Shown here: positions 1,897 through 16,625 of the stretch, piece after piece
Layout of the letters: every line of letters starts with the position of its first letter
How positions within the stretch are numbered: the first letter of the stretch is position 1
Assembly: GCA_965247685.1 (NCBI GenBank)
Contig: OZ252021.1
Location: forward strand, 390,001-422,000
Source of the DNA: Bdellovibrionales bacterium
GTDB lineage: Bacteria > Bdellovibrionota > Bdellovibrionia > Bdellovibrionales > UBA1609
Direction: 5' to 3'
Length of the DNA: 32,000 bases
Position numbers and translations under genes: made by a program
The notes under the pieces: model-generated
What the model was told of the DNA's origin: nothing
Databases searched by the model: none
Seen by the model: the letters and a program-made list of their open reading frames with translations, nothing else

Positions 1897-3078
1897 TTAT
1901 TTTTGGATTTTAAATTGACTGGCTAATCTTTGTGCTTCTGCAATTTGATCCTTCGTCATTTGATTCTTTAGTGTATTCAACAATTGATCTATCGCCTTTT
2001 TAGGTTCGTTTTTCCGAACCCGAGCTTTACTTAAAATCAACCACTTATAAGCTTGAATATAATTCTTCACTACCCCTTCACCAGAGTAATACATCAAACT
2101 AAGATCATTTTGAGCACTTGCAACTCCTTGCTCTGCTGACTTTTTATACCAATAAAACGCTTGCTTATAATTCTTTGTTACTCCTTCACCTTTGTAGTAC
2201 ATCGAACCAAGGACATATTGAGCATCCGCATATCCTTGCTGGGCTGACTTCTCAAACCAATAAACAGCTTTCTTATAATTCTTTACTACTCCTTCACCTT
2301 TGTAATACATCACACCAAGGATAAATTGAGCTATCGCATAACCTTGCTGGGCTGACTTCTCAAGCCAATAAACCGCTTTCTTATAACTCTTTGTTACTCC
2401 TACACCTCTCATATACATCCCACCAAGTCTATTTTGAGCATTTACATGTCCTTGCTGGGCCGATTTTTCAAACCAATAAAACGCTTGCTTATAATTCTTT
2501 ACTACTCCTTCACCTTTTATATACATCTCACCAAGATTATTTTGAGCCTTCGAAACTCCTTGCTGGGCTGACTTTTCATACCAATAGATTGCTTTCTTAT
2601 AATTCTTTGTTACTCCTACACCTCTCATATACATAAAACCAAGGTTATGTTGAGCGAGTGCATCTCCTTGCAGGGCTGACTTCTCATACCAGTAAAACGC
2701 TTTCTTATAATTCTTCACTACTCCTTTACCTTGCTCATACATCAAACTAAGATTAAATTGAGCTTTCGCATCTCCTTGCTGGGCTGACTTTTCAAACCAA
2801 TAAAACGCTTGCTTATAATTCTTTGTTACTCCTTCACCGTTGTAATACATCAAACCAAGTATAGCTTGAGCCTGTACATCTCCTTGCTGGGCTGACTTTT
2901 CATACCAGTAAAAAGCTTTTTTATAATTCTTTTTTTCTCCTTTACCGTAGTAATACATCACACCAAGGTTATATTGAGCTTCCGCATCTCTTTGCTGGGC
3001 TAATTTTTTAATAAGCTCATTTTGAGCAAGTGAAAAACTTTGAAATATTAATAAAAAGATTATGATTAATTTTTTCAT
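1897..3078 (-). CDS. Secreted Sel1-like (SLR/TPR-family) repeat protein, about 9 repeats
   Basis: The signal peptide is MKKLIIIFLLIFQSFSLAQ. It is followed by tandem ~36-aa units of the form A..WYEKSAQQGDA.AQ.NLG.MY..GEGV.KNYKKA, the Sel1 signature. An AAGGAG RBS precedes the ATG. Confidence 0.9.
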   Translation of the reverse strand: MKKLIIIFLLIFQSFSLAQNELIKKLAQQRDAEAQYNLGVMYYYGKGEKKNYKKAFYWYEKSAQQGDVQAQAILGLMYYNGEGVTKNYKQAFYWFEKSAQQGDAKAQFNLSLMYEQGKGVVKNYKKAFYWYEKSALQGDALAQHNLGFMYMRGVGVTKNYKKAIYWYEKSAQQGVSKAQNNLGEMYIKGEGVVKNYKQAFYWFEKSAQQGHVNAQNRLGGMYMRGVGVTKSYKKAVYWLEKSAQQGYAIAQFILGVMYYKGEGVVKNYKKAVYWFEKSAQQGYADAQYVLGSMYYKGEGVTKNYKQAFYWYKKSAEQGVASAQNDLSLMYYSGEGVVKNYIQAYKWLILSKARVRKNEPKKAIDQLLNTLKNQMTKDQIAEAQRLASQFKIQK

Positions 3079-3493
3079 ATTATTTCTCCTTTTAGTTTTG
3101 TTTGTTTTAAATTTAATTCAATTTCTTTAATTTAACTTTTTAATTATTTTCACTTTGTTTATACTCTCGTTTGACCTGACATAGCCTTCAAAATAGATAC
3201 CTTTCAGCACTTATATAGAAGCCCCTGTTTGAACGATTATTACTCTTACCTCCTCTTTAGTTGATAAACTTACTCTTCGGTAGATTTTCTGCTTCATTTA
3301 AGTAAAGGATAAGCAAGAATTTTTAGAAATGCACTTCATTAATTTAGCTAAAGTGTTTCATACTGAAACATTTTCAACACTACTGTCTAAGTTTATATAA
3401 CTTTAGGCTTGCTTTTAGACTGAGTATCTACAAAATGATATAAACATAGTAAAGAAAGGCTCAGTTATAGCACAAAAAGAAAACTTTTTAAAA

Positions 3494-4689: not shown

Positions 4690-7600
4690 ATGATTCAGTT
4701 TACCCCGCATGGTCCAAATATACCTGAAGAAGTTGTAATGGCTCTTAACAATGATAAATTAGTGTTGTTTTGTGGAGCTGGTATTTCAAAGGAACACGGG
4801 TTACCAACGTTTAAAGAATTAGTTAAGAAAGTATGTAAAGAATTATCTATAAATATAGATGGCCATCCTCTTTTAAAGGCATCTAAGGATAAGGAAGATT
4901 ATGATCAAATATTAGATTTAATTGAGGGACAACAAGAATTCTCAGTGAAACCAGAAATCTTAAGACAAAAGATTATCAGTATTTTACAATGTGATACAAA
5001 GTCTGTTGTTCATAAATATGATCAAAATTCTATTGTTCATAAATCTCTTTTGGATCTATCTGCCTTAACAGGTAATAGGGGACATAGGCTGGTAACGACA
5101 AATTTTGATGAGCTGTTTTTTAAGGCAGGATTGACTCGTAATCAAGTAGATTCAGCTCTAAAACTTATACTTTCTAAAAAAGAGGATTGGAATAATTTAA
5201 CATTTTTACATGGGGTTATTGATGAAGAAAATGATCCTGATGGAAAGCACCTTATTCTTACTAAAACAGATTTTGGTAAAGCCTATTTACATGACAAATG
5301 GGCAACTAATTTTATTATTCGTCTTTTTCAAGATTTTAAAGTATTATTTATTGGATATAGTGTAAATGATCCTATAATGCATTATCTTATTTCTGCTATT
5401 AATCATGAAAAGAAAATGAAAGAAGATAGCGGATTAGATTATTCAGCATATGCTTTTGTTGGATATAAAGATGATTCCTCAAAGGAATTAAAAGAAAAAA
5501 AGTGGTTATCAATGGGAATTCAACCAATACCTTATCGGATAGAGATAAGTGCAGACAACAAAGAATACAAGAATCACTCTATGTTATATAACACTATAAA
5601 GGAATGGGCTGATTTAAAGAAGAAAGGTTTTGAAGGATCAAAAAATTGGCTAAAGAAACAATTACGACATCCTTATAGTGACCTGGATAAAGAAAAAGCA
5701 GCTTCTGTAATTTCTTTTTTAAAAACAGATGAAAAATTAACAAAGTATTTTCCACAAATAGATCCTCCTGTTGATATAAGCTGGTTAATACCATTTACTA
5801 ATAATTCTTTAGAAAATCACAAACAAGATCAGGATTATTCAATGCCTCACAATCTAACTGATAAAACAAGATATCCTCAACTTGTGCAACCACTTTGGAG
5901 CTCTTTATCTCCAATAGAAAAATGTATGGTAAAGTGGCGTTGTTATCATTTAGATAAAGAACAATTAATTCAATGGGTTATAAATAATGGCTGTATGTTA
6001 CATCCATATTTTAAACAGCACATTCAATGGGAGATTACAGATAGAGAAAAAAGCACTAATAAAAGATTAAATCCATCTTTAAGTAAAGAAGTGTTATTAT
6101 TTTGGAAAACTGTTTCAAATCAAAATTATCCTCCACATGATCAAAATAATATGTTTGATTTAGTGGAAAGTTTGAACAAAAAATACTGTTCAATTAAAGC
6201 AAATAAATTTATAGGATCATTAAAACCATACATTAGTTTCATGATCTCTGCTAAGTCTCCTCTATATGCTAAGTCTCCTCTATATAATCCAAAACTAAAA
6301 TTGAATATAAATAACCATCTACGAACGTCACTAACTAATGAGAACACCCTTTTAGCACATGCTGAAGATTTTTCTAATCTATTAAAAAAAACAATGGAGT
6401 TAGCAACACTATTTGAAATTATTCAAAATGGAAAGGATACATTTTACAGAGATAGACCTTCTATTGAGAAACATAAACAAAATAATAATCTCTACTCTTG
6501 GACATATTTAATTGATTTAGTACAGGATAGTTTTGATCTAGCTATGAAGAAAGATAAAAAACTAGCTCAGTTTCTATTAGAAAAATGGAAACTTTATCCT
6601 TATTCAATCTTTCATCGATTGATTCTTTATGCTGTCACGAAATATTCTGATTTAGACGAGATAAAAGTTATTGAGTTGTTTCAAAATACTCAAGTTCTAT
6701 GGTCAATAACTTGTAGGAACGAAGTATTTAAATATTTAAAAAAACGAAATCATTCAGAAGAATCTACTAAAAAGTTACTCAAGTTAATTAAACAAGGTCC
6801 TTCTCGATCTCTATTTAACTCAAGTGTTAGTGATGAAAATTTCAATAAATTAAAAGAGATAGAGATTTACTATAGACTAAACAGGTTAAAGAAGTCAGGA
6901 GCTACGTTACCCAAAGCAATAGAAAAATATATCAATAAAATTCAATCAGAGTATCATTTGTCTTCATCGACAGAAGACCGAGATGATTTTCCTGTTTATC
7001 ATACGGGAATTAGAAAAGTCGGTAGTGAAAAGAAGTATCACAATTTAACAGCCCAACAAGTATATAAGGATTTAAAAAGCCTCACAGAAGATGCTCCTCA
7101 ATATAAAAAAGATGATAAACAAGAAAACTTTCGCATGTTAGTTAAAGATCATCCAGAGAAATCTTTTAAAGTACTATTACTTTTTCAAGATGATGATATA
7201 GAAAGTGCCCCTTATTGGGGAACTTTTCTCAGTGCAATTGTTATGATTAGTGATATGGAGATAAAAAAGAAATATTTCTTTGAAGCTTTAGAAAAAGTAG
7301 AAAATTTTAATGATACTGTCTTGAAGAGTATTCTTTGGTCACTCATATTTAGTTTTGATCTATGGGCTGTTGCTATTTATTTAAAAGATAAAAACAATTT
7401 TTATAAATGGTGGAATAAACTATGGAAGTTGAGTCTAGATGAGGATGTTAATCAAACTTCTTGGAATGGGAGTGATATTCCATTTAAAGCCATCAATTCT
7501 AATTTAGGAAAATTATCGAAATCTATAATGAGTATTTTATGGAATCAAGTTATAGAAAACAACAAAATTCCAAAAGATGGAAAGATACCTAACAATATAA

Positions 7601-8487
7601 AAGATTATTTGGAGATTATCATCAAAGATAGTACGCAACGTGATCCATCTGTGTTTTATCATTTTGGTTCGGATTTATCAGCTCTTTGGTTTTTAGATAA
7701 AGAATGGTCAATAAAACACCTAAAACCTTTGATGGACTGGAATAAGAAGAAAGTAATATATAAATCTCTATGGATGGGATTTTTGGATCATATGCGAGTG
7801 AGTCCAGAATTTTTATCGGATTTTAAAGATGATTTTTATCAGCTTCTACGTAATGGAAAAAAGCATATACAAGATCGTAGTTCATGTATTGCCGAAGTCT
7901 TTCTTATTACATCTGGATGTAAATGGTATAAAAGTATATTTGAAGAGAGAGAAGAACAAACTCTTAAACAGAAGACTATTGATGTTGAACTTTTAGAGTC
8001 TATTTCAGAAAAAATATATGAATTATTAGAAGACGCAGAGAGTAACTCTAATAATTTATGGTCTGAAAAGATTAAACCTTGGATAGAAAAATTTTGGCCT
8101 TATCAAACGAATATGCAGAGTCATACAACAGCTTCTAACTTATCCCTTCTAGTTTTGTATTGTGGTGATAAAATACCAGAAGCTTGTAATCTTTTAAAAG
8201 AGAAAATCAAAGGGCATATTGAAGTAAGTCCTTCAGGTATAGTAGATTCAGAATGTAGAAACATAGTTTATCATGTAGATAAATATGGGAAGACAAAATT
8301 AAAATATATCTTTGACTATCCTGAAGAACTTCTATGTCTATTAATTTGGAATTTTCCGGAACAGAAAATAGATCATATAGATCGTAAATCTCTAAGAAAA
8401 ATCTTAGGTGAAATAGAAAGAACTTCTTCTGAATTGGATTTGAAAAACAATGAAAATTATAGTGAACTTAGAGCTAAGTTATCTTGA
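4690..8487 (+). CDS. SIR2_2-domain protein, 1265 aa, with a large unassigned C-terminal region (DSR-like candidate NADase defence protein)
   Basis: N-terminal ~270 aa: LVLFCGAGISKEHGLPTF (Rossmann GAGxS, aa 29-33), LVTTNFDELF (Asn138), LTFLHGVID (His174) and VLFIGYSVNDP. These are the conserved blocks of the SIR2_2 family (ThsA, DSR1/DSR2). The remaining ~950 aa show no motif I recognise. Confidence 0.75.
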   Translation: MIQFTPHGPNIPEEVVMALNNDKLVLFCGAGISKEHGLPTFKELVKKVCKELSINIDGHPLLKASKDKEDYDQILDLIEGQQEFSVKPEILRQKIISILQCDTKSVVHKYDQNSIVHKSLLDLSALTGNRGHRLVTTNFDELFFKAGLTRNQVDSALKLILSKKEDWNNLTFLHGVIDEENDPDGKHLILTKTDFGKAYLHDKWATNFIIRLFQDFKVLFIGYSVNDPIMHYLISAINHEKKMKEDSGLDYSAYAFVGYKDDSSKELKEKKWLSMGIQPIPYRIEISADNKEYKNHSMLYNTIKEWADLKKKGFEGSKNWLKKQLRHPYSDLDKEKAASVISFLKTDEKLTKYFPQIDPPVDISWLIPFTNNSLENHKQDQDYSMPHNLTDKTRYPQLVQPLWSSLSPIEKCMVKWRCYHLDKEQLIQWVINNGCMLHPYFKQHIQWEITDREKSTNKRLNPSLSKEVLLFWKTVSNQNYPPHDQNNMFDLVESLNKKYCSIKANKFIGSLKPYISFMISAKSPLYAKSPLYNPKLKLNINNHLRTSLTNENTLLAHAEDFSNLLKKTMELATLFEIIQNGKDTFYRDRPSIEKHKQNNNLYSWTYLIDLVQDSFDLAMKKDKKLAQFLLEKWKLYPYSIFHRLILYAVTKYSDLDEIKVIELFQNTQVLWSITCRNEVFKYLKKRNHSEESTKKLLKLIKQGPSRSLFNSSVSDENFNKLKEIEIYYRLNRLKKSGATLPKAIEKYINKIQSEYHLSSSTEDRDDFPVYHTGIRKVGSEKKYHNLTAQQVYKDLKSLTEDAPQYKKDDKQENFRMLVKDHPEKSFKVLLLFQDDDIESAPYWGTFLSAIVMISDMEIKKKYFFEALEKVENFNDTVLKSILWSLIFSFDLWAVAIYLKDKNNFYKWWNKLWKLSLDEDVNQTSWNGSDIPFKAINSNLGKLSKSIMSILWNQVIENNKIPKDGKIPNNIKDYLEIIIKDSTQRDPSVFYHFGSDLSALWFLDKEWSIKHLKPLMDWNKKKVIYKSLWMGFLDHMRVSPEFLSDFKDDFYQLLRNGKKHIQDRSSCIAEVFLITSGCKWYKSIFEEREEQTLKQKTIDVELLESISEKIYELLEDAESNSNNLWSEKIKPWIEKFWPYQTNMQSHTTASNLSLLVLYCGDKIPEACNLLKEKIKGHIEVSPSGIVDSECRNIVYHVDKYGKTKLKYIFDYPEELLCLLIWNFPEQKIDHIDRKSLRKILGEIERTSSELDLKNNENYSELRAKLS

Positions 8488-8647
8488 TTAGTGTCATATC
8501 CACAACTGAGATTAAAATAATTGCATAGTTTTAAATATTGAATGTTCGCTCAACACACTAGTAACTCCAACAACAAGTGTAGATAGCAACACTCCAGTAA
8601 CTGATAAATAATTTTGTTTAGATGTTGCCACAGTATAAGATCAAAAA

Positions 8648-8674
8648 GGAGAACGAAAGTTCTCCCTTTTTTTT
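8648..8674. terminator. Bidirectional intrinsic terminator between the convergent SIR2 and COG2865 genes
   Basis: The stem ggagaac (8648-8654) / gttctcc (8659-8665) has a GAAA loop. It is preceded by AAAAA and followed by a T8 run, so it has the form of a terminator on both strands. Confidence 0.7.
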
Positions 8675-8718
8675 AACTACTCTAAATGAGATTTACCATA
8701 AGGAACATTGATTAGTAT

Positions 8719-8959
8719 AAAGTGGCAGTATAAAGCTACTAAAGTGGCAGTATAAAGCTACCAAAGTGGCAGTATAAAGCTACCAAAGTGGCAGTATAAA
8801 ACTACTAAAATACAGTATAAAGCTATCAAAGTGGCAGTATAAAGCTATCAAAGTGGCAGTATAAAGCTACTAAAGTGGCAGTATAAAGCTACCAAAGTGG
8901 CAGTATAAAGCTACCAAAGTGGCAGTATAAAGCTACCAAAGTGGCAGTATAAAACTACT
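8719..8959. repeat. Tandem array of 11 x 22-bp direct repeats (iteron-like), no spacers
   Basis: The unit is aaagtggcagtataaagctacY. Units start at 8719, 8741, 8763, 8785, 8807 (21 bp, degenerate: aaaatacag...), 8828, 8850, 8872, 8894, 8916 and 8938. Variation is limited to the last 3-6 positions (ctact/ctacc/ctatc/aaactact). The last unit overlaps the stop codon of the 8958-10418 gene. Confidence 0.95.
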
Positions 8960-10418
8960 ACTTTATAGATTCTTTTAATACCTTATATCTCTCAGTAATT
9001 TTGTATTTCCCAGTTTTCTTTGAGCCTTCAAATGATACGAGTTTATTTTCTTTTAAAGTAATTATGTTTCTATCTAAAGTTCTTAAGGGCATATTGTACT
9101 TTTTAGAGAAAAACAGTCTGGAAAAATTATTATTTTCTATATGATGTAATATCTGTAACAGTTCATTTATTTTTATTTCTTTTTTCACAGCAAGGATTTC
9201 ACTTAGCTTCTTCGTGAGATTCTCCATAGCTACTACCTCAGGTGCTTTAATAATATGTCCTCCTGGAAGGGGTTTTCTATAAAATATTAGTGTTGTAAAT
9301 TTAGTAAATTCAAAATTGATAGGTTTCAGTCCTGCTTTTGCGACTAAATTTTTCATTTTCTTTATTCCTGTTCCCATTTTTTCAATATATCCTGCTCTTA
9401 ACATAAGCTGAGCAATAAGTGGATTTCTAGCAGAACTTCTCTTCCCAAGTTCTGATATCTTTAAATCCTTTGGAAGTGCTCCAAAATTATATATTTCTAC
9501 TCTATCATCGAAAATTTCAACTGTCACAGATATACCTTTCTCTAAATACTTTCTATGAGTTACGGCGTTGATTAAAGCTTCTCGTAATGCATCTTCTGGT
9601 ATTTCTAAAATCTCTTCTCTATACAACTGTCCTTTAGGAAGGACATATTCTAAGCGCAAGTGTTTTTTTAAAAAATCTACTGAATCTTCAACGTTATTGA
9701 TTATATCCTTGTTGAATATTTTTCTATCAATCACATGAATTTTTTCTGTTCCCTTAAAAAGAGCACAAGATACTGCTGCTTGTGGAAAAATACTTTCTAA
9801 ATTTTTAGAGAAAAATAAAACTCCTGTATTATTAAAAACAATTTTTGAGCCTTCTCTTTTTGCAATACTGAGATTTTCTAATAGTTGAATATAGTTGCTT
9901 CTACTGTATTGTACTTCACTTCTATCCATAAAATAAAATAACTTTTCTTTATCAAAATCTTTTTTGAAATTAAATTTTTTACAAATAACTTCATCAAATT
10001 TTAGACGATCTTCAGTTTCTAAAAATTCTATAATCTCATCTCGACTAAGTTTTTTTGAAGACGCTCCATCCCGCACATAGAAACCTGAAGAACATTTATG
10101 AGGTTTATTATCACTTTCTTGAACTTTAACTATTAAAACTTTTTCTTTTTTTATTTCCTGGAGTGAAATGGACAAGTTGGGATCACAATTATTAGCAATG
10201 TCCTTTATTTGACTTTTTAATCTGTTTGTAATATTATTTGCATCTTTTACTTCACCATCATCTGTAATACCAATGTAAATTTGCCCGCCAGAAGCATTGG
10301 CGAAAGCAACCATTTCTTTACCAAGATTGCTATATACTTGTTCCTTGAATTCAGTTTTATAGTCCTCCCCTTTTTTAAGGATAGATTCAAGGTCTCGCGA
10401 AGAAGTAAACTTTGCCAT
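8958..10418 (-). CDS. AlbA_2 (Schlafen-like, 'divergent AAA') + HATPase_c_4 + C-terminal wHTH protein (COG2865 family putative regulator)
   Basis: The N-terminus, ...GEDYKTEFKEQV...EMVAFANASGGQIYIGITDDGEV, matches the AlbA_2 signature. The central REALINAVTHRKY...VEIFDDRVEIYNFG matches the HATPase_c_4 block. The C-terminal ~80 aa are HTH-like. Confidence 0.75.
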   Translation of the reverse strand: MAKFTSSRDLESILKKGEDYKTEFKEQVYSNLGKEMVAFANASGGQIYIGITDDGEVKDANNITNRLKSQIKDIANNCDPNLSISLQEIKKEKVLIVKVQESDNKPHKCSSGFYVRDGASSKKLSRDEIIEFLETEDRLKFDEVICKKFNFKKDFDKEKLFYFMDRSEVQYSRSNYIQLLENLSIAKREGSKIVFNNTGVLFFSKNLESIFPQAAVSCALFKGTEKIHVIDRKIFNKDIINNVEDSVDFLKKHLRLEYVLPKGQLYREEILEIPEDALREALINAVTHRKYLEKGISVTVEIFDDRVEIYNFGALPKDLKISELGKRSSARNPLIAQLMLRAGYIEKMGTGIKKMKNLVAKAGLKPINFEFTKFTTLIFYRKPLPGGHIIKAPEVVAMENLTKKLSEILAVKKEIKINELLQILHHIENNNFSRLFFSKKYNMPLRTLDRNIITLKENKLVSFEGSKKTGKYKITERYKVLKESIK

Positions 10419-10426
10419 TTATATAC

Positions 10427-10666
10427 TTAGTGTTCTTTGTCTTTTATAGAAATAGGATCATTGCCATGTGAATCTTTAGAACGAAATCTCCCAGGTATAC
10501 CATGGGTTATCAATTCTGTATGTGCTTTTTTAGCAATACTCTTACCAGCTTGTTCTGCTAATTTTTGAGTATTATGCGTCGATACCACTTCACCACATTG
10601 TGTAACTTTCCATTTTCTTCCACTACCCTTATTAAGGGATACATGAATTGGTTTCTTTCTTAGCAT
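10427..10666 (-). CDS. DUF2188 family small protein
   Basis: ...GRKWKVTQCGEVVSTHNTQKLAEQAGKSIAKKAHTELITHGIPGRFRSKDSHGNDP matches the DUF2188 pattern (W.V...G......T..EA...A...A.....EL.IHG.DG.I....S.GNDP). The gene ends 8 nt upstream of the COG2865 gene, so they are probably co-transcribed. Confidence 0.7.
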   Translation of the reverse strand: MLRKKPIHVSLNKGSGRKWKVTQCGEVVSTHNTQKLAEQAGKSIAKKAHTELITHGIPGRFRSKDSHGNDPISIKDKEH

Positions 10667-10690
10667 TATTTTTCCTTATTTAAGGGCATA

Positions 10691-10718
10691 AGTATATGAC
10701 TTTTAAATACGAAATCAA
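10691..10718 (-). promoter_or_regulatory. Sigma70-like promoter for the DUF2188-COG2865 operon
   Basis: On the minus strand: TTGATT (10718-10713), a 16-nt spacer, then TATACT (10696-10691). This lies about 25 nt upstream of the ATG at 10666, with an AAGGA RBS. Confidence 0.4.
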
Positions 10719-10832
10719 GAAATATAATAGAAAAAGATACTACCGATGGAAAGTTTTTTTGTGAGAACTTATCTCCTTATTTTTACTTTCTATCAAAAAA
10801 ATCTCCCTACTACTAAGGTGAACAAATTTATA

Positions 10833-10862
10833 TTGACAACATAATGCGTTAAAAACTAGTAT
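10833..10862 (+). promoter_or_regulatory. Sigma70-like promoter for the 484-aa gene
   Basis: TTGACA (10833-10838), an 18-nt spacer, then TAGTAT (10857-10862). An AGGAG RBS sits 7 nt before the ATG at 10949. AT-rich DNA produces many such matches by chance. Confidence 0.35.
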
Positions 10863-10948
10863 AACATATTGATTTCACTGAATATTTTTTTATACTAAAT
10901 TAGTATATAGTAATTGTTTTAACTATAAATATAGGAGAATGACATTTT

Positions 10949-12856: not shown

Positions 12857-14794
12857 TTATTTTTGGATTTTAAATTGACTGGCTAATCTTTGTGCTTCTG
12901 TAATTTGATCCTTTGTCATTCGATTCTCTAGTGTATTCAACAGTTGATTTATCGCCTTTTTAGGTTCGTTTTTCCGAACCCGAGCTTTACTTAAAATCAA
13001 CCACTTATAAGCTTGAATATCATTCTTCACTACTCCTTTGCCGTAGTGATACATCAAAACAAGGTTAAGTTGAGCAGGCGCATTTTCTTGCTGGGCTGAC
13101 TTCTCATACCAGTAAAACGCTTTCTTATAATTCTTTTTTATTCCTTCACCGTTGTAATACATCGAACCAAGATTATTTTGAGCTCTCGCATCTCCTTGCT
13201 GGGCTGACTTCTCATACCAATAAAAAGATTTTTTATAATTCTTTTCTACTCCTTCACCTTGCTCATACATTAAACCAAGTTCATATTGAGCTTCCGCATG
13301 CCCTTGCTGAGCTGACTTTTCAAACCAATAAAACGCTTGCTTATAATTCTTTGTTACTCCTTCACCTTTGTAATACATTAAACCAAGGTCAAATTGAGCA
13401 CCCACATATCCTTGCTGGGCTGACTTTTCATACCAGTAAAACGCTTTCTTATAATTCTTTGTTACTCCGTCACCTTGCTCATACATGAAACCAAGGTTAT
13501 TTTGAGCACCCGCATATCCTTGTTGGGCTGACTTTTCAAACCAATAAAACGCTTTTTTATAGTCCTTTTTTACTCCTTCACCTTTGTAATACATCAAACC
13601 AAGTTCAAATTGAGCTTCCGTATATCCTTGCTGGGATGACTTTTCATACCAATAAAACGCTTGCTTATAATTCTTTGTTACTCCTTCACCTCCCGCATAC
13701 ATCACACCAAGGTTATATTGAGCGAGCGTATATCCTTGCTGTGCTGACTTTTCATACCAATAAAGAGCCTGTTTATAATTCTTTGTTACTCCTTCACCAG
13801 AGTAATACATCGAACCAAGGTTATTTTGAGCACCCACATATCCTTGCTGGGCTGACTTTTCAAACCAATAGATTGCTTGCTTATAATTCTTTGTTACTCC
13901 TTCACCAGAGTAATACATCCTACCAAGGTTATCTTGAGCGAGCGCTTCTCCTTGCTGGGCTGACTTTTCAAACCAATAGATTGCTTGCTTATAATTCTTT
14001 GTTACTCCTTCACCTTTCTTATACATCATACCAAGGTTATTTTGAGCTATCTCTTGTCCTTGCTGGGCTGCCTTTTTATACAAATTAAATGCTTTTTTAT
14101 AGTCCTTTTTTACTCCTTCACCTCTATAATACATCACACCAAGGTTATATTGAGCTTCCGCTTGTCCTTGCTGGGCTGACTTTTCAAACCAATAAAGAAC
14201 CTTTTTATAATTCTTTGTTACTCCTTCACCAGAGTAATACATCGAACCAAGGTTATATTGAGCTCTCGCATATCCTTGCTGGGCTGACTTTTCATACCAA
14301 TAAAACGCTTGCTTATAATTCTTTTTTATTCCTTCACCTCCCGCATACATCAAACCAAGGTTATATTGAGCTTCCGCATCTCCTTGCTGGGCTGACTTTT
14401 CATTCCAATAAAACGCTTTCTTATAATTCCTTACTACTCCTTCACCTTTCTTATACATCAAACTAAGATTATTTTGAGCACTCGCATCTCCTTGCTGGGC
14501 TGACTTTTCAAGCCAATAGATTGCTTTCTTATAATTCTTTGTTACTCCTTCACCAGAGTAATACATCACACCAAGGCTAAATTGAGCGCCCGCAGTTCCT
14601 TGCTGGGCTGACTTCTCAAGCCAATAAAACGCTTTCTTATAATTCTTCGTTACTCCTTCACCGTTGTAATACATCAAACCAAGTTTAAATTGAGCTGCCG
14701 CATTTCCTTGCTGGGCTAACTTTTCAGTGGGCTTATATTGAGCAAGTGAAAAACTTTGAAATATTAATAAAAAGATTATGATTAATTTTTTCAT
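12857..14794 (-). CDS. Secreted Sel1-like repeat protein, about 16 repeats
   Basis: The signal peptide MKKLIIIFLLIFQSFSLAQ is the same as in the other two paralogs, and the C-terminal tail (...IQAYKWLILSKARVRKNEPKKAINQLLNTLENRMTKDQITEAQRLASQFKIQK) is near-identical to that of paralog 1 and related to that of paralog 3. I place the start at the ATG at 14794 (paralog-consistent), not at the TTG at 14854 given by the ORF track. Confidence 0.9.
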   Translation of the reverse strand: MKKLIIIFLLIFQSFSLAQYKPTEKLAQQGNAAAQFKLGLMYYNGEGVTKNYKKAFYWLEKSAQQGTAGAQFSLGVMYYSGEGVTKNYKKAIYWLEKSAQQGDASAQNNLSLMYKKGEGVVRNYKKAFYWNEKSAQQGDAEAQYNLGLMYAGGEGIKKNYKQAFYWYEKSAQQGYARAQYNLGSMYYSGEGVTKNYKKVLYWFEKSAQQGQAEAQYNLGVMYYRGEGVKKDYKKAFNLYKKAAQQGQEIAQNNLGMMYKKGEGVTKNYKQAIYWFEKSAQQGEALAQDNLGRMYYSGEGVTKNYKQAIYWFEKSAQQGYVGAQNNLGSMYYSGEGVTKNYKQALYWYEKSAQQGYTLAQYNLGVMYAGGEGVTKNYKQAFYWYEKSSQQGYTEAQFELGLMYYKGEGVKKDYKKAFYWFEKSAQQGYAGAQNNLGFMYEQGDGVTKNYKKAFYWYEKSAQQGYVGAQFDLGLMYYKGEGVTKNYKQAFYWFEKSAQQGHAEAQYELGLMYEQGEGVEKNYKKSFYWYEKSAQQGDARAQNNLGSMYYNGEGIKKNYKKAFYWYEKSAQQENAPAQLNLVLMYHYGKGVVKNDIQAYKWLILSKARVRKNEPKKAINQLLNTLENRMTKDQITEAQRLASQFKIQK

Positions 14795-15749: not shown

Positions 15750-16625
15750 CTATAAAACAATATCTTTCTTTGTGGATTTTATAAATTGCCTGATCAATCT
15801 TTGTGCTTCCGCAATTTGATTCTTTGTCATTTGATTCTCTAGTGTATTCAACAATTGATTTATCGCTTCTTTAGATTCGTGTTTCCGAATTTTACCTAAA
15901 ATCAACCATTTATAAGCTTGAATATAATTCTTTTTCACTCCTCTTCCCATGAAATACATCACACCAATAGTAAATTGAGCATATATATGTCCTAGCTGTG
16001 CTGACTTCTTAAGCCAATAAAAAGCCTGTTTGTAATTCTTTACTACTCCTACACCGTTGTAATACATTTCACCAAGAGTAAATTGAGCCTTCGAAACTCC
16101 TTGCTGGGCTGACTTCTTATACCAATAAAACGCTTGCTTATAATTCTTTACTAAGCCTTCACCTCTATAATGCATCAAACCAAGTTTAAATTGAGCATCT
16201 GCATATCCTTGCTGGGCTGACTTTTTATACCAATCAAAAGCCTGTTTGTAACTCTTTACCACTCCTCCTTTTCCATATTGATACATCCAACCAAGATTAT
16301 ATTGAGCTTCCGTATTTCCCTGCTGTGCTGATTTTTCAAACCAATAGATTGCTTTCTCATAATTCCTTACTACTCCTTTTCCATCGTAATACCTGTCACC
16401 AAGTATATTTTGAGCTCTCGCATATCCTTGCTGGGCTGACTTTTCATACCAATCAAAAGCTTTCTTATAATCCCTTACTACTCCTCCTTCACCTTTCTCA
16501 TGCATCATACCAAGGTTAAGTTGAGCCTTTGCATCTCCTTGCTGGGCTAATTTTTTAATAAGCTCATTTTGAGCAAGTGAAAAACTTTGAAATATTAATA
16601 AAAAGATTATGATTAATTTTTTCAT
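15750..16625 (-). CDS. Secreted Sel1-like repeat protein, about 6 repeats
   Basis: It has the same signal peptide, MKKLIIIFLLIFQSFSLAQNELIKKLAQQGDA. The Sel1 units are more diverged (some with a GG insertion), and the tail is related (IQAYKWLILGK...QMTKNQIAEAQRL). The start is taken at the paralog-consistent ATG at 16625. Confidence 0.9.
   Translation of the reverse strand: MKKLIIIFLLIFQSFSLAQNELIKKLAQQGDAKAQLNLGMMHEKGEGGVVRDYKKAFDWYEKSAQQGYARAQNILGDRYYDGKGVVRNYEKAIYWFEKSAQQGNTEAQYNLGWMYQYGKGGVVKSYKQAFDWYKKSAQQGYADAQFKLGLMHYRGEGLVKNYKQAFYWYKKSAQQGVSKAQFTLGEMYYNGVGVVKNYKQAFYWLKKSAQLGHIYAQFTIGVMYFMGRGVKKNYIQAYKWLILGKIRKHESKEAINQLLNTLENQMTKNQIAEAQRLIRQFIKSTKKDIVL

Follow-up and report, generated by a model that had tools for sequence, protein, structure and literature searches.

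A 22-bp tandem repeat array at the stop codon of a COG2865-type gene in a Bdellovibrionales bacterium is very probably a member of a repeat family coupled to the C-terminal winged helix-turn-helix module

A stretch of 32,000 nucleotides from a Bdellovibrionales bacterium (assembly GCA_965247685.1, contig OZ252021.1, positions 390,001 to 422,000; hereafter the window) contains at 8719-8959 eleven contiguous direct repeats of about 22 bp, located at the stop codon of a COG2865-type gene whose product ends in a winged helix-turn-helix (wHTH) domain. Comparison with related loci indicates that this array is very probably one of a family of repeats in genetic linkage with the wHTH module at the C terminus of COG2865 proteins, and that it evolves as a minisatellite. 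The window array would be an extragenic, expanded and inverted member of this family. As a more tentative reading, somewhat short of probable, the sequence comparisons suggest that the repeats may be helically phased cognate sites for the adjacent wHTH, docking several protomers beside their own gene. A literature search found no description of linker or array repeats in COG2865 genes, and the repeat family beside the COG2865 wHTH tail is considered previously undescribed.

Anatomy of the array

Tandem Repeats Finder reports a single array at 8719-8958 with a period of 22, 11.0 copies, 92% matches and a score of 410. A manual split gives ten units of 22 bp and one degenerate unit of 21 bp, the fifth (AAAATACAGTATAAAGCTATC, 8807..8827, plus strand), in line with the original prediction, which had been made from the sequence alone. 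The consensus on the plus strand is AAAGTGGCAGTATAAAGCTACC. When up to three mismatches are allowed, ten units match this consensus, while none of 100 dinucleotide shuffles contains any match (0/100), and a mismatch-tolerant search found no further copies elsewhere in the 32-kb window. The 11-unit array is confirmed as real and highly non-random. Setting the degenerate unit aside, variants are limited to positions 17 and 20-22, again as had been noted for the 3' end of the unit. The order of the variants is common to units 1-4 and 7-11, two blocks divided by the degenerate unit, which argues for a higher-order duplication of the array. The last unit overlaps the COG2865 stop codon (8958-8960; TAG in the gene, seen as CTA on the plus strand) by 2 nt, as described before. 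A point absent from the original prediction is that the conserved core, AAAGTGGCAG, lies on the plus strand, i.e. antisense to the COG2865 gene. The degenerate half-unit that had been proposed nearby (gccacagtataagatc, 8627-8642, plus strand) does not hold up: its likeness to the unit is limited to the 8-mer CAGTATAA, for which chance alone predicts one match in 32 kb, and it is not recovered at up to two mismatches to the 13-mer core, so that it is probably a chance resemblance.

An array of clustered regularly interspaced short palindromic repeats was rejected because the units are contiguous, without spacers. By inspection, a coding array was rejected as well, since stop codons occur within the 22-bp unit and each repeat shifts the frame.

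Arrays in relatives of the same lineage

Homologs of the COG2865 protein (63-78% identity) were compared, together with the DNA surrounding their genes, within the same small-genome, Bdellovibrionales-like lineage. In all eight distinct full-length homologs with an intact frame, an array begins at the stop codon or no more than about 15 bp from it; they correspond to nine loci, as L008 and L009 carry the same protein. If gene fragments are included, the same applies to 12 of the 14 wHTH-coding 3' ends. The unit lengths are 12, 22, 34 or 46 bp and the copy numbers range from 3 to 46. Units of 12 bp are found in L004 (8 copies), L007 (3.2 copies, encoding the final residues and the stop), L008/L009 (about 45 copies) and L095 (23 copies), whereas the units measure 22 bp in L093 (4.4 copies), about 22 bp in L006 (5.7 degenerate copies) and 46 bp in L003 (4.4 copies) and L005 (9 copies). 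The longer units resolve into sub-units of about 11-12 bp, and all units of the lineage have the core AAA(A/G)TGGC(A/G) or AAAGTTCGG in common. A tblastn map shows that gene fragments ending in the wHTH also precede arrays (L003, 8825-8986; L004, 2127-2465 and 11072-11995).

In a motif-cluster scan of 152 kb of lineage DNA, the core clusters lie nearly all at wHTH-end positions, apart from L002, a cluster of three hits in L006 and a pair of off-type arrays with an 11-bp period in L005. Among the wHTH ends themselves L091 is an exception, with its repeat in frame just ahead of the wHTH; its unit, TGGCACAATAAA, stands before the wHTH in L091 and after it in L003 and L005. The homolog in L091, P0076 (5060-5450), is called as a protein of 388 aa ending in KVAQ and a stop; a +1 reading restores ...FYRKPLHPES(GTIN)x4...wHTH, pointing to a frameshift or an assembly error before the in-frame array. 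L002, a Bdellovibrionales metagenome-assembled genome, carries a related 22-bp array (AAAGTGGCAATATAAAGTAACA x3.6) and no adjacent COG2865 gene, so the array family can exist apart from the wHTH gene or outlast its loss. In L002, arrays with a AAAGTGGC core stand head to head at 6454-6524 (plus strand) and 6545-6622 (minus strand), between convergent AbiEii and T5orf172-like genes.

The copy number changes quickly. L008 and L009, from two samples, are identical over the gene (1456/1456) and nearly so over the flanks (1998/2000, 99.9%), yet their arrays measure 547 and 535 bp and have their GCA/GCG variants in a different order. For the 22-bp type, 11 copies are found in the window, 4.4 in L093 and 3.6 in L002, although these data come from long-read metagenome assemblies, in which some repeat-length error is possible. 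The suggestion of a hypervariable minisatellite, one of three readings originally offered, is supported as a description of behaviour: the array behaves as a variable-number tandem repeat (VNTR).

With regard to orientation, the core lies on the gene sense strand in 10 of 12 lineage arrays and is antisense in the window and in L093. The L093 homolog, P0009, is the closest relative of the window protein (78% identity), and the junction is identical in both, consisting of the stop followed by TAG(C/T)TTTATACTGCC. In L093 and in L002, the far end of the 22-bp array meets the stop codon of a T5orf172-like gene, which is small and convergent and whose sense orientation the array shares. This gene has been lost from the window, where about 15 nt of shared flank are left, followed by a terminator and the gene for the sirtuin Dsr1. 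The 22-bp subtype may have a second association, with the T5orf172-like gene. A plus-strand remnant of a wHTH gene between Dsr1 and the array, which would account for the inversion, was searched for and none was found.

L093 and L094 are parts of one 16,642-bp contig (ctg236759_1x_c) that comprises 1.57 copies of a 10,581-bp period, with 4 mismatches in 6061 bp. It could be a small circular element or a tandem duplication, and at 1x coverage it may be an assembly artefact. Its genes, some of them R-M-like, include an N6_N4 methyltransferase, Z1/ResIII, HTH_3, Fic, a frameshifted COG2865 gene and two T5orf172-like genes.

In-frame repeats in distant homologs

A metagenome scan with the family alignment yielded 80 loci from many environments, at 32-53% identity, of which 74 have a determinable stop codon. 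In 65 of these 74 distant homologs, a near-perfect tandem array of 3-7 units is present in frame, 100-420 nt ahead of the stop, while an array of any kind near the stop occurs in only about 6 of 67. The in-frame arrays map to the disordered linker in front of the wHTH, which in the window protein spans residues 383-397. Their period is 12 bp at 50 loci, 11 bp at nine, 13 bp at two, 21 bp at two, and 10 and 24 bp at one locus each. Four of the in-frame units (AAATGGCGGAGT, TGGCGGATTAAA, AAAGTTCGGTGT and TGGCAAGTTAAA) are identical 12-mers to post-stop units of the window lineage. Tandem paralogs each have their own unit, as in L029 with TTQK, SSQK and LEKD.

Units of 12 bp give tetrapeptides, for instance EKLG, KTRE, TPQV, NGGV and NEGL. 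In members with a wHTH of 'type A', the repeat AAAA-NN-N-(GGG/CCC)-AG is read in two frames, at 15 loci each (KTRE-type and EKLG-type), and arrays with an 11-bp period are translated in all three frames in turn, e.g. as STPQVPRKYPA. The arrays of the window lineage, which are mostly non-coding and located after the stop, have periods that are not all multiples of three and keep the cores nevertheless. Because the use of frames varies and non-coding arrays keep their cores, the conserved property would be a nucleic-acid repeat at about one helical turn and not a peptide. Conservation appears to act at the level of the DNA.

Pairing of cores and recognition helices

The COG2865-type gene of the window (8958..10418, minus strand) encodes 486 aa with an AlbA_2 (Schlafen-like) domain (Pfam, 1.3e-22), an HATPase_c_4 domain (2.7e-19) and the C-terminal wHTH. 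In an AlphaFold2 model the wHTH comprises residues ~414-486, encoded at 8961..9179 (minus strand), with helices at 414-428, 434-440 and 445-457 and wing strands at 461-464 and 471-474; the block means of the predicted local distance difference test (pLDDT) are mostly 71-88 over this segment. The closest folds to the model are 3LMM, Schlafen cores and wHTH domains of the ArsR/MarR type, and the C-terminal domain is confidently modelled as a wHTH of the latter type. The predicted recognition helix consists of residues 445-457, inside the stretch PLRTLDRNIITLKE. The linker (residues 383-397, 9228..9272, minus strand) is disordered, with a pLDDT below 50, and is non-repetitive in the window gene.

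Five classes of helix and core can be distinguished in the lineage. LDRNII goes with GGCAGT (window, L093, L006 and L095), LNRDIT with GGCACA (L003 and L005), LNRRLT with GGCAT/GGCGC (L008), VERNVN with GGCGGT (L004), and both SIEKD and TIENY with TTCGGA (L007 and L004b). Among the distant homologs there are three: GGCGG units (GGVF) pair with a (K/R)RT(L/M)ERD helix, GAGGG units (EG[IV]N) with (S/T)xTAERD and TTCGG units (FG[VI][KN]) with RT(I/V)E(N/K). The pairing tracks the C-terminal module and not the body of the protein. P0030 has the most distant body among the full-length homologs compared (60% identity to the window protein over residues 1-380, 68% over the wHTH), and it has the same helix and core as the window protein. 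P0002-P0004, with bodies closest to that of the window protein (71-72%), nevertheless have different helices and cores. A cognate-site relationship predicts that the core tracks the helix despite inversion and a change of period, and the core is indeed kept between the inverted 22-bp arrays of the window and L093 and the 12-bp sense arrays of L095.

Proposed explanation

On the reading considered very probable here, most of the family carries the repeat inside the gene, in the linker ahead of the wHTH, as 3-7 near-perfect units of about one helical turn. In the window lineage the repeat lies outside the frame from the stop codon onwards where, freed of coding constraint, it has grown to up to 46 copies and shifted its periods to 12, 22, 34 and 46 bp, all near multiples of 11-12 bp, turning over by slippage or unequal exchange. 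In the more tentative part of the model, each unit would provide one core site (AAAGTGGCAG in the window), putatively recognised by the wHTH of the neighbouring gene, and the spacing of about 11 bp would place several protomers side by side next to their own gene. Such docking might concentrate or hold the Schlafen-like/GHKL-type body on the chromosome, as a reservoir or assembly platform; alternatively, the bound protein might form a roadblock between the convergent genes. The comparison shows how the arrays are built and distributed, how variable they are and how helices and cores pair; the binding and its consequence are inferred.

The spacing agrees with an operator array for a wHTH, the in-frame periods being 10-13 bp and the extragenic ones 12, 22, 34 and 46 bp. 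Classical autoregulation at the promoter is not supported, as the unit is not enriched there. In 54 distant homologs, the match of the unit in its own upstream 260 nt averages 8.02 out of 10, compared with 7.87 in the upstream regions of others; matches of at least 9/10 occur upstream in 20% of self and 14.5% of cross comparisons, and the downstream regions are likewise not enriched. The region upstream of the window gene (10419-10948) contains no copy of the unit. Therefore, if the wHTH binds the repeat, the array itself would be the site and not a promoter operator. Of the three readings first offered, which taken together are partly supported, the binding array for the wHTH protein is favoured by the comparative data, with a core that lies beside the wHTH segment in nearly all relatives and co-varies with the helix, whereas the unit is missing from the genes' own promoters.

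This missing enrichment weighs against the docking model, and several further points do so too. The copy number is loosely constrained (3-46), and in L002 and L093 the 22-bp type also runs up to the stop of a small T5orf172-like gene, in L002 with no COG2865 gene alongside. The helix-core pairing can also be explained by physical linkage and common descent of the wHTH and array as one module, two causes that computation cannot separate from recognition. Finally, any purpose of docking a protein beside or inside its own gene is speculative.

Comparison with known systems

Iterons located inside or after the gene of their own binding protein are known from ori-lambda, in gene O, and from P1 incA, after repA. 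The COG2865 arrays resemble them in that direct repeats of about two helical turns are coupled to the gene of a DNA-binding protein, in the linker-coding stretch or after the stop, and in that, from one relative to another, the repeat changes together with the binding domain. They differ in that the neighbour in the window is not a replication initiator, an AT-rich unwinding region and DnaA boxes are missing, many copies are present per chromosome and nothing points to a role in replication. Tandem-repeat centromeres such as F sopC (after sopB), R1 parC and pBtoxis tubC, whose 12-bp repeats are bound by the wHTH protein TubR, are similar as well, with short, helically phased tandem repeats of variable copy number beside a gene for a small DNA-binding domain. 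Unlike these, the arrays described here lack a motor gene of the ParA/ParM/TubZ type and are tied to a chromosomal family with many paralogs in defence islands.

Domains of the PhoB/OmpR type are wHTH domains that bind head-to-tail direct repeats one helical turn (about 11 bp) apart. A comparable arrangement is seen here, with a core and an A/T-rich spacer once per helical turn and an adjacent protein ending in a wHTH. However, PhoB/OmpR operators lie in promoters and comprise 2-4 units, while the arrays lie in or after the gene, comprise up to 46 units and are absent from the gene's own promoter. With bacterial VNTR and contingency loci they share the fast change of copy number and variant order in near-identical strains and the higher-order duplications; the position beside one protein module, conserved across phyla, and a core that is conserved while the rest varies set them apart. 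A further likeness is to the in-frame linker repeats of the COG2865 genes themselves (L010-L089), which have cores of the AAATGGCGG, AAAGTTCGG and TGGCA types, a wHTH-coding neighbour and a period of about 11-12 bp. Unlike these, the window array lies outside the reading frame and is inverted, has a period of 22 bp and is much longer, with 11 units against 3-7.

Alternative explanations

The main rival is a functionless minisatellite, i.e. an ancient slippage-prone tract that is tolerated in a disordered linker, was moved past the stop in this lineage by rearrangements among paralogs and survives and grows there through replication slippage, with no sequence-specific role. We hold this to be possible but rather unlikely. 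It would agree with the hypervariable arrays of L008 and L009, with long arrays being mosaics of blocks of slightly differing units, with the higher-order duplication within the window array, and with loci rich in gene fragments and insertion-sequence remnants, including remnants of a second wHTH after the arrays of L006 and L007. The absence of unit copies from promoters fits as well. Neutral tracts would, however, be expected to decay or vanish in many lineages. Instead, these genomes of about 1.3-1.6 Mb have kept an array at 12 of 14 wHTH ends, although the paralogs are only 52-70% identical, near-perfect repeats are kept in 65 of 74 distant homologs, and the core stays constant where spacers, periods, orientation and coding status do not. 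Those second-wHTH remnants, which are degenerate, could also point to a substrate for recombination. In that case the arrays would be homology tracts flanking a wHTH cassette, through which paralogs exchange, duplicate or delete modules, in frame at the 12-bp period. The history of the wHTH and array module does differ from that of the gene body, the paralog at 11072-11995 in L004 has a TTCGG-type repeat on both sides of its wHTH segment, TGGCACAATAAA stands on one side of the wHTH in L091 and on the other in L003 and L005, and several homologs are truncated exactly at the linker. For one of the truncated homologs (P0042 in L090) a spare wHTH cassette downstream was looked for and none was found. 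Most arrays are not followed by a spare cassette, a 22-bp period gives no in-frame joins, the window array is inverted relative to its gene, and the different units of tandem paralogs such as those of L029 would hinder exchange. Recombination is considered an improbable explanation.

An element acting at the RNA level, in the 3' untranslated region or the coding part of the mRNA, for example as a binding platform for the AlbA_2/Schlafen-like domain or as a stability element, seems very improbable. The array lies between stop and terminator and is thus probably transcribed, the gene-sense orientation prevails in 10 of 12 lineage arrays, and the minus-strand RNA folds better than shuffles (z = -3.8). 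Yet in both the window and L093 the core runs counter to the COG2865 mRNA, in antisense, the unit variants break a small hairpin at the unit junctions without compensation, the sense-orientation arrays at other loci form no comparable hairpins, and no Rfam family matches the array region, the only Rfam match in the window being the transfer-messenger RNA (tmRNA). A slim chance is given to the idea that the 22-bp subtype belongs to the T5orf172-like (GIY-YIG-related) gene, for instance as target or footprint of a mobile nuclease, so that its place beside COG2865 would be accidental. While the contacts with the T5orf172-like stop in L002 and L093, in sense orientation and in L002 without a neighbouring COG2865 gene, speak for it, in the window the array persists and still joins the COG2865 stop as it does in L093 (TAG|TAGyTTTATACTGCC), although the T5orf172-like gene is lost, and the core is common to all COG2865-linked arrays and fits the helix class.

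Scarcely credible is a relic iteron origin or partition centromere of an integrated plasmid or phage, another of the readings first offered. Tandem direct repeats of 17-22 bp are iteron-like in form, the array lies in a low-GC island near the tmRNA gene, and the closest homolog is found on the possibly circular contig with the 10,581-bp period. Against this, no Rep, Par or integrase gene was found among the scanned genes of the window or on the 10.6-kb element, neither a DnaA-box cluster nor an att repeat is present, and arrays recur beside numerous paralogs of one genome and, across phyla, within reading frames, unlike a replicon-specific element. Searches of Pfam, NCBIfam and PADLOC covering the 20 largest open reading frames (ORFs) of the window, up to 27285, found no Rep, ParA/B, ParM/R or TubZ-type gene, and no Rep gene was found on the 16.6-kb contig of L093. 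No TTWTNCACA DnaA site is present in the intergenic region 8488-8957; the nearest (9181-9189) lies inside the COG2865 gene, 222 bp past the right end of the array, and the count of nine in the window is not significant, being reached in 6 of 100 shuffles.

Comparison of the unit with plasmid and phage databases lent no support to such an origin either, giving no phage match and one weak plasmid match; the COG2865 family is essentially absent from viral contigs. The sole plasmid match is itself a genuine iteron-like array upstream of a rep gene of Paraclostridium, which would favour an origin, although the match comes down to a single unit, about 73% identical, that the tandem structure multiplies, and the Rep of the plasmid has no relation to the wHTH. 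Kinship with this array was rejected, the shared CTATCAAAGTGnCA being judged a chance resemblance of one unit. On the plasmid concerned (Paraclostridium bifermentans, CP124688.1; L092), seven direct repeats of 21 bp (TATCAAAGTGACACTTTTAAC) at 3001-3149 are probably true iterons; they precede by about 260 bp an ORF of 144 bp next to the annotated replication-initiation gene. A dispersed repeat resembling repetitive extragenic palindromes or bacterial interspersed mosaic elements was rejected too. Scatter of the unit over unrelated loci, named beforehand as a refuting observation, was not seen: an exact 20-mer scan of 185,579 species genomes gave two loci, a lone match in Clostridium and the related array of L002, and the same scan of viral contigs gave no match. 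The statement that nothing else in the window explains the array is correct as far as the window goes; it was related loci that supplied the explanation.

Genomic setting and other repeats

On the plus side, the array is flanked by the gene for Dsr1 (4690..8487, plus strand), a defence-associated sirtuin of 1265 aa that is convergent to the COG2865 gene; the two neighbours are as originally described. Dsr1 was identified with PADLOC (7.8e-143), Pfam (SIR2_2) and NCBIfam (1.2e-150, yet its 503 bits fall short of the curated threshold, 1400). Between Dsr1 and the array lies a hairpin of an intrinsic terminator, GGAGAAC-GAAA-GTTCTCC, flanked by an A-run and a T-run (8648..8674, both strands). A terminator scan recovers the hairpin at 8648-8665 with its T-run, in agreement with the earlier claim of a terminator beyond the array for the minus-strand gene, and since a U-run is present on the opposite strand too, the hairpin is bidirectional. 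It is predicted to end the Dsr1 transcript and, past the array, the COG2865 transcript. An uncalled minus-strand ORF of about 75 aa (MLRKKPIHVSLNKGSGRKWKV..., 10440-10670) immediately precedes the COG2865 gene and is possibly co-transcribed with it.

The GC content is 28-30% at 4-12 kb of the window, compared with about 35% in its housekeeping part, and this low-GC stretch with Dsr1 and COG2865 lies on the 3' side of the tmRNA gene (17165-17514, minus strand; Rfam, 136 bits). Just left of the low-GC stretch is a SoFic-type Fic gene (688-1830, GC about 32%). With the low-GC stretch of Dsr1 and COG2865 and the adjoining SoFic gene, the array is located in what looks like a defence island near ssrA (4-12 kb). 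No integrase was found in the window, nor a direct repeat of the tmRNA 3' end that would indicate an att duplication. Three Sel1-repeat genes on the minus strand (2058-3008, 13031-14726 and 15914-16557) contain tandem units of 108 bp (36 aa), with up to 15.7 copies of 72-83% identity; such coding repeats are ordinary and have nothing to do with the 22-bp array.

Other short repeats were observed in the lineage loci. TTTTTGCGTGA occurs as two tandem copies in intergenic regions near COG2865 genes (L003, 3270-3295 and 9139-9162; L004, 4203-4226 and 7643-7667; L095, ~6990). In L004 and L095 it is located shortly after a 'ACTTTTACATAAAAAAAGAGCC...' hairpin that is itself downstream of the arrays, and it is absent from the window. 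L005 has unrelated intergenic arrays at 3244-3284, 8078-8192 and 9138-9244, including an 11-bp unit, TGTCGCAAGTT, x9.4 after a methyltransferase gene and a 33-bp unit x3.2 after RNase PH. The genomes of the lineage are apparently rich in short intergenic repeats. In L008 (6445-6996) and L009 (6445-6984), both on the minus strand, called ORFs of 183 and 179 aa consist wholly of the 12-bp array, (ATGCCATTTATT)n, and are almost certainly spurious genes.

Biological meaning

COG2865 proteins form a large family that is widespread in bacteria and archaea and common in defence islands, and their N-terminal fold is shared with the eukaryotic Schlafen immunity proteins. To our knowledge, they have no established function. 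The presence of a helically phased repeat beside the wHTH tail in nearly every sampled member, coding in some and non-coding in others and with a core that tracks the recognition helix, offers a handle on the target of the wHTH and on why these genes cluster and diversify in defence islands. For annotation, the arrays account for spurious ORF calls such as the 183-aa 'gene' of L008, and the array sites are natural VNTR markers. We consider it doubtful, albeit worth stating, that COG2865 proteins carry their own array of wHTH sites in or attached to the wHTH-coding DNA, much as ori-lambda lies in gene O but with no role in replication, each protein being tethered in register next to its gene. 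If true, a cis-acting DNA repeat would have to stay translatable inside the gene and would be free to expand outside it, as in the window. The maintenance of such a repeat inside a reading frame, in several frames and periods, would be unusual.

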